Shown here one piece after another: positions 18,256-57,862 of a DNA stretch of 64,000 nt. The stretch comes from a bacterium (GTDB lineage: Bacteria; Babelota; Babeliae; Babelales; JAUWHS01). Each line of letters opens with the position of its first letter. Position 1 is the stretch's first letter. The stretch lies in NCBI GenBank assembly GCA_043818275.1, contig JBDRFY010000050.1:10217-74216 (forward strand), given 5' to 3'. A program made the translations under genes and the position numbers. The notes below the pieces were generated by a model. The model was not told the DNA's origin, did not search any database, and saw nothing but the letters and a program-made list of their open reading frames with translations.

Positions 18256-18331
18256 GGGCCCATAGCTCAGCGGTCAGAGCAGTCGGCTCATAACCGAAAG
18301 GTCCCAGGTTCAAATCCTGGTGGGCCCACCA
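18256..18331 (+). tRNA. tRNA with CAT anticodon, probably tRNA-Ile2 (lysidine)
   Basis: GGGCCCA/TGGGCCC acceptor stem, TAGCTCAG D arm, CTCATAA loop, GTTCAAATC T arm, encoded CCA; lacks the initiator GGG/CCC anticodon stem. Confidence 0.92.
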
Positions 18332-18506
18332 TACTTCGCTAAAGCTTCGTATGGCGCAGCCATTTTTTAAATGATTGATTTTGAATTTTAAAGAAACTTT
18401 CAACTTAAAAAGCGAAGTATGCCCTTCTCCGTCCTTCGCATAAAGCTTCGGAGAACTCTGCGAAGTTTGACACGAAGCAAAGTTAGCTCGAAGAGCGAAG
18501 TAGGGC
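18329..18506 (+). repeat. tRNA-3'-trailer palindromic element (CTTCG/CGAAG REP family), with a nested extra copy
   Basis: ccatac-ttcgctaaagcttc-gtatgg hairpin; agcgaagtatg (18411-18421) complementary to 18330-18340; gcccttc...gcgaagtagggc to 18506. Confidence 0.8.
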
Positions 18507-42265: not shown

Positions 42266-42313
42266 GCCCTTCGAAGCAAACCTTTCGTTTAAACTTCGCA
42301 GTGCGAAGTAGGG
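42266..42313. repeat. CTTCG/CGAAG REP-family element abutting the 5' end of tRNA-Ser
   Basis: gcccttcgaagcaaa...gcgaagtaggg, similar to 18421-18506. Confidence 0.65.
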
Positions 42314-42403
42314 AGAGATGGCTGAGTGGTCGAAAGCGCACGATTGGAAATCGTGTATGTCACGAAAGTGGCATCGAGGGTTCGAATCCCTCTCTCTCCG
42401 CCA
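42312..42403 (+). tRNA. tRNA-Ser(GGA)
   Basis: GGAGAGA/TCTCTCC acceptor stem, CACGA-TTGGAAA-TCGTG anticodon arm, long variable arm, GTTCGAATC, CCA. Confidence 0.96.
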
Positions 42404-42533
42404 GTCTTCGCTCTGACGAGCTTCGCCTGGCGCGGCCAGTTTTTTAAATGAATTGATATTATTAGAAAAAGTTAGCGAAGACTGTCCGGCGAAGTAAAAC
42501 TAACATTTTAAATTTCGTAGTACGAAGACGGAC
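42399..42533 (+). repeat. tRNA-3'-trailer palindromic element
   Basis: cgccag...ctggcg hairpin; agcgaagactg (42474-42484) complementary to 42402-42412; gtccggcgaag...gaagacggac. Confidence 0.8.
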
Positions 42534-42558
42534 GGCTTGAAATAATTGTTTTAAAGTT

Positions 42559-42632
42559 GGGGTAAGTTGATAAATAGCAAAATCTGTCAGGTCCGGAAGG
42601 AAGCAGCAGGTGTTACCTTGTCGCTGTACCCC
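42559..42632 (+). ncRNA. ffs: Signal recognition particle RNA (4.5S), compact form
   Basis: Helix-8 signature TCAGGTCCGGAAGGAAGCAGC inside a hairpin closed by GGGGTA/TACCCC; lies between tRNA-Ser and dnaX. Confidence 0.9.
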
Positions 42633-42636
42633 TTTT

Positions 42637-43104
42637 TTAATCCAGAGCATCTTCATAATCTTGTAAAATTTTTTCAATATCTTTTAAATTAAATTCTTGC
42701 GCATAATCAATTAAATTTTTTCCATCAGATACAAAACGCGCGCATATAATCATTGAAACTTTTTCACAAGAATCTAATAACTTTACCAGGGTTTGATTAA
42801 TTCCCAATGCTGCGCAAACTTCAATTTTTTTAATTTTATCATCATCTTTATAACCACGTAACTTAAATAAAAATTCTGCAAAACCATCCCAATTAACAAA
42901 CAATAAATATTTTGGTTCTTCTTGTCTTAAAATTTGAGATAACTCAAAAAGATCTCTCACTGTTTTGCAAGCTTCTAATCTTTCATTAACAACATATAAA
43001 AATTCCTTTGACATTTTTTTATTTTCTTCTTTTCCTGCAAAAGTAAAATCATTTGAAAAATTTAATAAAAAAATTATCGTTAAAAAAATATTAGTAAATT
43101 TCAC
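42637..43104 (-). CDS. Secreted hypothetical protein with ankyrin-like C-terminal repeat
   Basis: Signal peptide; CAALG...LVKLLD and DGKNLIDYA...IEKIL. Confidence 0.6.
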   Translation of the reverse strand: MKFTNIFLTIIFLLNFSNDFTFAGKEENKKMSKEFLYVVNERLEACKTVRDLFELSQILRQEEPKYLLFVNWDGFAEFLFKLRGYKDDDKIKKIEVCAALGINQTLVKLLDSCEKVSMIICARFVSDGKNLIDYAQEFNLKDIEKILQDYEDALD

Positions 43105-56993: not shown

Positions 56994-57126
56994 GCGCCTC
57001 CCTCGACCCTTAAGGGCTCGGGACAGGTTCCGCTTCCCCCTTCGCTCTTCGAGCTTCGGAGGACAAGCAATTGGATAAATAATTTCACCGTTCTCCCTGA
57101 GAAGCCACCATGGCATCTCGAAGGGT
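56994..57126. repeat. Cluster of REP hairpins interleaved with tRNA-Arg 5' fragments
   Basis: ccctcgacccttaagggctcggga, ccttcgctcttcgagcttcggagg and ccctgaga...tctcgaaggg; gcgcct and caattggata match the 5' end of tRNA-Arg(TCG). Confidence 0.6.
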
Positions 57127-57156
57127 TAAATAAATTGAAATATAAAAATTATACGT

Positions 57157-57233
57157 GCGCCTGTAGCTCAATTGGATAGAGTACCGGACTTCGAATCCGT
57201 TGGTTGCAGGTTCGACTCCTGCCAGGCGCGCCA
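57157..57233 (+). tRNA. tRNA-Arg(TCG)
   Basis: GCGCCTG/CAGGCGC acceptor stem, TGGATAGAG D loop, CGGA-CTTCGAA-TCCG anticodon arm, GTTCGACTC, CCA. Confidence 0.94.
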
Positions 57234-57263
57234 TCCTACGCCAAGGCTTCGGATGGCAGGCCA
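57230..57263 (+). repeat. tRNA-3'-trailer hairpin
   Basis: gccatcc-tacgccaaggcttc-ggatggc followed by aggcc. Confidence 0.8.
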
Positions 57264-57303
57264 TCTTTTTTATGGAATTTTTATTACATACCTATAACTC
57301 AAA

Positions 57304-57378
57304 TGAACCCTTCGACTAGCTCAGGACTTCGAGTTTCCTAAACTCGGGGTTCACTCCCGAAGAATTGAGGGACCGCAG
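57304..57378 (+). pseudogene. REP-interrupted remnant of tRNA-Arg(CCT)
   Basis: tagctcagg, exact gagtttcctaaactc anticodon arm and ccgcag are colinear with the intact tRNA downstream. Confidence 0.6.
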
Positions 57379-57405: not shown

Positions 57406-57482
57406 GTGCCTATAGCTCAGGTGGATAGAGCGAGAGTTTCCTAAACTCTAGGCCGCAGGTTCGAGTCCTGCTAGGCACACCA
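57406..57482 (+). tRNA. tRNA-Arg(CCT)
   Basis: GTGCCTA/TAGGCAC acceptor stem, AGAGT-TTCCTAA-ACTCT anticodon arm, GTTCGAGTC, CCA. Confidence 0.95.
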
Positions 57483-57597
57483 GCTTTCGCTAAAGCTTCA
57501 GCTGGCATGCCAAATAAATTAATGAATTTTTAAATAACTTATAAGAACCATTGATAGCGAAAGCTGTCCGCCGAAGCTCTTAAGAGCGTAGGAGGAC
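57480..57597 (+). repeat. tRNA-3'-trailer palindromic element preceding the GIY-YIG gene
   Basis: ccagct...agctgg hairpin; tagcgaaagctg (57555-57566) complementary to 57481-57492; gtccgccgaagctcttaagagcgtaggaggac. Confidence 0.82.
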
Positions 57598-57619
57598 TGG
57601 CCAAAAATTAATAAAAATT

Positions 57620-57862
57620 ATGCATTACGTTTATATCATTCAATCAATAAATTACCCCCAAAAACGATATGTTGGATGCTCAAACAATATAAAAAAACGT
57701 TTGACCAATCACAATTCAGGAACTACTTCTCATACCAGAAAATATAAACCTTGGGAACTTATTGTATGTATATGCTTTAAAAATAAAGATAAAGCCGTAG
57801 AATTTGAAAAATATTTAAAGTCTGGTTCAGGAAGAGCTTTCTCTGCAAAAAGATTTTTCTAA
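57620..57862 (+). CDS. Small stand-alone GIY-YIG nuclease
   Basis: YVYII...YVGCS...RLTNHNSG...T.KYKPW...A..FEKYLKSGSGR. Confidence 0.92.
   Translation: MHYVYIIQSINYPQKRYVGCSNNIKKRLTNHNSGTTSHTRKYKPWELIVCICFKNKDKAVEFEKYLKSGSGRAFSAKRFF

Follow-up and report, generated by a model that had tools for sequence, protein, structure and literature searches.

A CCA-anchored hairpin element at tRNA ends and its partner GIY-YIG gene: an apparently undescribed variant of the hairpin-plus-small-nuclease systems

Small nucleases and structured repeats are combined in several known systems. Free-standing homing endonucleases of the T4 SegB type are GIY-YIG genes residing in tRNA clusters, whereas IS200/IS605 peel-and-paste elements carry subterminal hairpins of single-stranded DNA (ssDNA), the junction being matched by complementary bases inside the element. 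Ssn nucleases (cd10448) are single-domain GIY-YIG proteins encoded beside their own dispersed and oriented hairpin, the NTS/SRM (PMC11893778), and the main text of that paper mentions tRNA nowhere. REP/REPIN/BIME repeats with their RAYT enzymes are described as multi-copy short palindromes that form inverted doublets, mosaics and in-frame copies, with a rare enzyme-bearing copy (PMC3733652); this paper mentions neither GIY nor a location at tRNA ends.

The locus reported here resembles each of these systems in part. As in Ssn, a single-domain GIY-YIG protein of less than 100 aa has its own dispersed, oriented hairpin, and gene and repeat co-occur across phyla (PMC11893778), but the repeat is different, the protein is distant, the anchoring on the CCA of tRNAs and tmRNAs is exact and a third, splint-like arm is present. 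The features of REP/REPIN/BIME-RAYT listed above are all shared (PMC3733652), although the partner is a GIY-YIG protein rather than a Y1 transposase and the target is a tRNA end. Similarly to IS200/IS605, predicted ssDNA hairpins are combined with internal bases pairing with the junction; however, there is no HUH Y1 transposase, the encoded protein being a GIY-YIG, and the gene lies outside the paired ends. The gene adjoins tRNA genes as in SegB-type systems, yet unlike SegB and I-TevI it has no separate DNA-binding domain, is chromosomal and possesses its own structured repeat. Finally, the best sequence and fold matches are Slx1 and HIGLE (PDB 7wme, 7cq2-4, 6seh), whose PDB titles name 5'-flap or branched substrates, but the protein has only 80 aa, lacks a RING or partner domain and is tied to a repeat. 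Our literature search found no published description of a CCA-anchored tRNA-end element with a GIY-YIG gene, and the system is a real, widespread and apparently undescribed variant of the hairpin-plus-small-nuclease kind.

The window, i.e., the whole stretch of 64,000 nucleotides analysed, lies on contig C50 of the source genome (working label G000; 1.33 Mb, 31% GC), and its closest gene relatives come from Dependentiae/Babeliales, suggesting a Dependentiae-like genome. A preliminary description had reported that the four tRNAs of the window (3' ends at 18331, 42403, 57233, and 57482) run into a hairpin including their own CCA, and all four indeed read as CCA-xyz-YWCGC-loop-GCTWC-x'y'z'-TGG. 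The anti-strand that it noted at three loci was recovered 72-81 nt past the CCA, followed at each by a second hairpin, as was the stand-alone GIY-YIG gene, 22 nt past hairpin B (Pfam E 1e-16). The features are as follows:

57406-57482, plus strand: tRNA-Arg(CCT), whose CCA (57480-57482) anchors the element
57480-57505, plus strand: hairpin A of the Arg(CCT) copy, with arm 1 (57480-57490) including the CCA, a 4-nt loop and arm 2 (57495-57505)
within 57480-57505: 3x3 internal loop of this hairpin A, purine-rich on the minus strand
57503-57512, plus strand: tail mini-hairpin of the same copy, overlapping arm 2, with a second CCA at its end
57513-57556, no strand assigned: AT-rich spacer, variable in length and in part common to unlinked copies
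57557-57566, plus strand: arm 3 (anti-strand) of the Arg(CCT) copy, exact complement of C75-A76 plus arm 1
57566-57597, plus strand: hairpin B of the Arg(CCT) copy, the hairpin A motif in opposite orientation, with no gap after arm 3
within 57566-57597: internal loop of this hairpin B, purine-rich on the plus strand
57620-57862, plus strand: gene of the 80-aa stand-alone GIY-YIG nuclease, with conserved Y5, Y17, R27, H31, and E63 and Slx1/HIGLE as closest fold
57157-57263, plus strand: tRNA-Arg(TCG) with a partial copy, hairpin A and tail only (57231-57263), without arm 3
18330-18505, plus strand: gene-less full copy at tRNA-Met (18256-18331), arm 3 starting at 18412; a 176-nt insertion absent from the congener G001
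42401-42533, plus strand: gene-less full copy at tRNA-Ser(GGA) (42312-42403), arm 3 starting at 42475
57034-57064, minus strand: solo hairpin of the element family, upstream of the tRNA-Arg pair and not CCA-anchored; outer bounds approximate

The SRP RNA (42556-42638) starts about 20 nt past the tRNA-Ser(GGA) copy, and a B-type hairpin directly abuts the 5' end of tRNA-Ser genes, at 42266-42314 in the window and at both tRNA-Ser genes of contig C13, its last bases overlapping the first bases of the tRNA. A second repeat family is interleaved with the CCA element (approximately 56995-57035, 57086-57130, and 57307-57375); it corresponds to the inverted repeats flanking GIY-YIG genes of another subfamily (C18:20566 and C75:30805) and matched neither SRM nor Rfam.

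Enrichment of the element at tRNA 3' ends, which the preliminary description had set as a test, was found. A strict pattern matches 17 places in the source genome, 15 of them at the CCA of a tRNA or tmRNA, the other two lying one after a tRNA-Asn-like 3' fragment and one elsewhere, and a reversed control pattern has no match in this genome. With a relaxed rule, 25 of the 46 ARAGORN tRNA/tmRNA calls, two of which look spurious, carry a CCA-anchored hairpin; by itself, the core is found after 1.6% of the 31,751 CCAs of the genome. In an unselected pattern scan of GTDB, 43/65 matches with an intact stem fell on a tRNA end, vs. 0/54 without an intact stem. The trailer has no family match in Rfam 15 (the window at gathering score, nine loci at E ≤ 1). 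That the layout arose by chance or by faulty assembly might be feared from the fragmented assembly (92 contigs, 4% contamination); this reading is refuted and its probability practically nil, as isolate genomes of Bradyrhizobium and many phyla show the same layout and a control pattern gave 2 matches vs. 804 in 201 genomes.

Across copies, the order is CCA, arm 1 (xyz-YWCGC), loop, arm 2 (GCTWC-x'y'z'-TGG), tail, spacer, arm 3 (consensus GCGWA-z'y'x'-TG), hairpin B, and optionally the gene; the tail ends in CCA in 144/163 copies, and the GWAG word is internal to the element's stem. The preliminary description had claimed that the variable bases change together in all three arms at the window loci. 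This co-change stands across copies overall but not for the closing arm of the tRNA-Ser copy, which reads GCC and not GAC: its arm 1 matches the anti-strand exactly and mismatches the closing arm. Arms 1 and 2 are perfectly complementary at xyz in 118 of 163 distinct copies (shuffle mean 14, maximum 25), arms 1 and 3 in 40 of the 47 copies with arm 3 and hairpin B fully parsed (mean 8.8, maximum 17), and arm 3, defined for this count only as the complement of arm 1, is present in 101 of 191 trailers vs. 3.9 in shuffles, all these shuffles ignoring relatedness. The match between arms 1 and 3 includes the W position in 46/47 copies, and the core of hairpin B follows arm 3 by 6 nt in 63/101. The base after TGG is C in 155/163 copies whatever the discriminator, so that, as a rule, pairing is not fitted to the tRNA; tRNA-Ala of Bradyrhizobium departs from this, its arm 3 extending 3 nt further. 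At Bradyrhizobium tRNA-Val loci, arm 3 and hairpin B are nested inside the loop of hairpin A with both folds kept, and thus the junction survives rearrangement. After the terminal C of hairpin B, T is found in 29/47 copies and A in 9/47, which argues against a general duplication of CA.

Empty orthologous tRNA sites, another check that had been proposed, were found between the source genome and G001. Among 33 tRNAs compared by eye, the direction of change being unpolarised, 15 are filled in both genomes with a different xyz at 13 of them, 8 are filled only in G000 (two, Asn and Arg-TCT, look displaced by an island in G001), 3 have a copy in G001 alone and 7 are empty in both. The clean gap is at tRNA-Met, where the insertion (18330-18505) begins at C74/C75 and reaches the base of hairpin B, ± 2 nt; such a clean filled/empty junction was obtained for this single pair, the left end being exact and the right end variable elsewhere. 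One variant dominates many tRNAs per genome (11/12 in G030, 12/15 in G039, and 9/11 in G119), and tandem repeats of the leader and a repetition of hairpin A just past the stop codon are recurrent. In these comparisons the element behaves like mobile DNA, related genomes differing by its gain, loss and replacement. At a tRNA-Tyr of Bradyrhizobium (L667), the whole leader is tandemly triplicated before the gene. Elsewhere, an 8-10 nt 3' fragment of tRNA-Asn followed by the element is located 18 kb downstream of tRNA-Asn in G000 (C73:31556) and about 14.5 kb downstream of it in G001 (C47; L009), like the attR of an island.

Hairpins A and B represent one motif in opposite orientations. On the tRNA-sense strand, the mismatches of hairpin A are pyrimidine pairs (40/51), with CAAG and TAAA as common loops, whereas those of hairpin B are mostly purine pairs (30/47), with CTTG and TTTA loops that are drawn independently of the hairpin A loops. 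The purine-mismatch signature is therefore on the template strand for hairpin A and on the sense strand for hairpin B. In DNA, stable motifs are formed by YTTR loops and by purine 3x3 loops that sheared G-A pairs close. These opposite signatures suggest the template strand as the likely place of folding for hairpin A and the sense strand for hairpin B; on the sense strand, arm 3 would take arm 1. Both structures place a helix end at the CCA. Moreover, arm 3 and the start of hairpin B form the reverse complement of the element's own end-to-start junction, gapless at the join, a complementarity that predicts a branched, double-flap structure at the CCA.

The preliminary description had also proposed a two-state RNA switch that hides or frees the CCA to control 3' maturation of the tRNA; located in the pre-tRNA, such a switch might alternatively tune how far transcription continues into the nuclease gene. 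Every tRNA-anchored copy is within the transcript, and in the Arg(CCT) copy the two folds are alternatives, RNA parameters favoring hairpin A and DNA parameters arm 1:arm 3 plus hairpin B. The pairing of arms 1 and 3 also tolerates G-T on the sense strand (5 G-T vs. 1 A-C), and a tail followed by a T-run resembles a terminator at 57251-57266. However, the variable bases track the genome and the element lineage, not the tRNA; at orthologous sites the copy is missing or exchanged for another variant, and the pattern is missing from 60 of 201 genomes. The nearly constant C after TGG ignores the discriminator, the tail leads into a T-rich run in just 38/144 copies, the non-canonical signature of hairpin A is on the template strand, and solo hairpins lie away from tRNAs, one being in frame inside uvrC (G000 C38:5112). 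A switch for tRNA maturation thus fared poorly and appears quite improbable. Any tRNA-anchored copy is also part of the pre-tRNA, so processing may be affected as a side effect.

The GIY-YIG domain covers residues 1-70 of the 80-aa protein, and its catalytic residues (listed above) are kept in at least 104 of 106 homologues. The predicted structure (pLDDT 92) has HIGLE and Slx1 as top Foldseek matches (E 1e-4, TM 0.72-0.76), followed by a modest margin by a UPF0213 protein (2.4e-4), and the model accordingly has an Slx1-type GIY-YIG fold. The source genome encodes four small GIY-YIG genes of the element-linked family behind tRNAs (Arg, Arg, Asp, and Glu), whereas the two genes of the other subfamily are not behind tRNAs and have their own inverted repeats. 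After tRNA-Glu, a divergent hairpin without purine loop precedes a divergent nuclease gene (C6:11507-11900; also L100 and L124); the proteins of C6 and L100 group with 100/98 support, and on C6 a broken second gene fragment follows.

Homologues were pooled from sets of 80 and 29 into 107 distinct gene loci, distributed in Alphaproteobacteria, Verrucomicrobiota, Planctomycetota, Patescibacteria, and others. In 78 of them the gene is preceded, within 600 nt upstream, by a tRNA or tmRNA on its own strand, vs. 22/1019 background ORFs, and several of the remaining 29 are behind tRNA fragments or undetected tmRNA ends. The linked loci include 14 acceptor types and 11 tmRNAs; the frequency of tmRNA suggests that only the acceptor/T-arm end or the CCA is recognised at the target. 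The association of element and nuclease subfamily, which the preliminary description had asked to verify, was found: among 201 phylum genomes, the pattern is present in 114/125 with the gene vs. 27/76 without it (odds ratio 19; presence defined at E<1e-20, 12 weaker matches being counted as absent). The link persists when each genus is represented by a single genome (66/74 vs. 16/47), and 13 of 14 within-genus contrasts are positive, with one tie. Exceptions are the 27 genomes with the pattern alone and 11 with the gene but without the strict pattern, the genomes being incomplete MAGs. The gene is chromosomal, and no phage or plasmid match was found for it.

The repeat could also be moved by another enzyme, a RAYT/IS200 Y1 transposase or an island integrase, with the GIY-YIG gene as a passenger. 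The source genome does have five Y1 matches without internal stop and one broken, and some copies follow short tRNA 3' fragments in an attR-like manner. Nevertheless, Y1 presence is unrelated to the repeat in the 201 genomes (51/67 vs. 90/134, p = 0.25), 60 genomes combine at least two copies with the GIY-YIG gene in the absence of any Y1 match, and the Y1 genes of the source genome are flanked by their own, different palindromes. A Y1 transposase as mover is hence largely refuted, no RAYT association being detected in this set, and the passenger scenario as a whole is very improbable. On C36, C59, C60, and C76 of G000, RAYT-like Y1 genes, four in all, are accompanied by palindromes of their own, and the palindrome of C76 has the element's inner core.

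By analogy, the system probably works like Ssn/NTS or RAYT/REP. It has the multi-copy short extragenic palindromes and inverted doublets of REP/REPIN; BIME-like mosaics of nested hairpins (about 200-250 bp) also occur in intergenic regions away from tRNAs (G000 C12, C22, C41, C72 twice, and C86). It also has the small single-domain GIY-YIG with intact catalytic residues of Ssn. As a stand-in for SsnA we took L600, which is encoded next to an NTS and is the one GIY-YIG protein that 129 NTS loci yielded; the pairwise E-value was 6e-4 and the best of 106 family members reached 5e-6, both short of the Ssn bar of E<1e-10, and the family forms a long separate branch. The SRM motif lies within 500 bp of the gene in 1/109 loci and is absent from the window and G000. 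By the tests run, on this proxy protein and the SRM, the system is not an Ssn member. A function proposed for SsnA/NTS may still be considered, in which the nuclease would be a domesticated single-strand restriction enzyme cutting hairpin-bearing incoming or recombining ssDNA, and would control traffic at tRNA integration hot spots while repeats spread slowly by recombination. SsnA, a GIY-YIG of similar size, cleaves ssDNA next to a hairpin and influences transformation (PMC11893778), and the present gene is near-single-copy at one tRNA across Bradyrhizobium (25/29 loci at tRNA-Ala(GGC)), which fits long vertical residence. Selfish spread fits better with the genome-specific variant sweeps, the patchy presence, the exact CCA anchoring, up to 10 matches per genome and several broken copies, and restriction leaves arm 3 unexplained; we regard this role, including the control of traffic, as unlikely.

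The preliminary reading of a non-autonomous tRNA-3'-end element tied to a GIY-YIG family is thus upheld by tRNA enrichment, co-occurrence, filled and empty sites and three-arm covariation. As the repeat comes and goes between relatives and co-occurs with a tiny Slx1-like gene, it is likely selfish rather than a maturation switch. We infer that the nuclease spreads the element, and with fair confidence favor a selfish element whose predicted nuclease recognises a folded single strand and nicks at the CCA, host repair completing the spread. The gene-bearing copy would be read through from the tRNA promoter. On the template strand, when single-stranded, hairpin A would fold with its base at the CCA; on the sense strand, arm 1 would pair with arm 3 and this helix would stack on hairpin B. 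The resulting branch would have two flaps, a 5' one made up of the tRNA, at C74/C75, and a 3' one made up of the DNA further downstream, and the nuclease would nick at this branch. To our knowledge, no joining step exists for the hydrolytic GIY-YIG domain, so host enzymes must be invoked: through repair or ligation, the unit would be copied to further CCA ends, older copies would be displaced and tandem duplications would arise, gene-less copies being mobilised in trans. More tentatively, and with some doubt, the model could correspond to a new class of transposon, a self-splinting ssDNA element whose internal arm templates its own end-joining and which uses an 80-aa flap nuclease instead of a transposase, aimed at tRNA/tmRNA CCA ends across many phyla; the gene itself is outside the splinted unit.

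The proposal can be tested precisely and cheaply, since oligonucleotides can be defined as substrates, the position of the cut is predicted and Bradyrhizobium hosts are in culture. The Ssn toolbox would be enlarged by a structure-guided ssDNA nuclease of 80 aa whose arms can be re-programmed. If true, the element would be a widespread mobile system that needs neither integrase nor transposase to occupy the tRNA end, the safest conserved address of the genome, and tiny GIY-YIG proteins, an abundant but uncharacterised family, would thereby be assigned a function.
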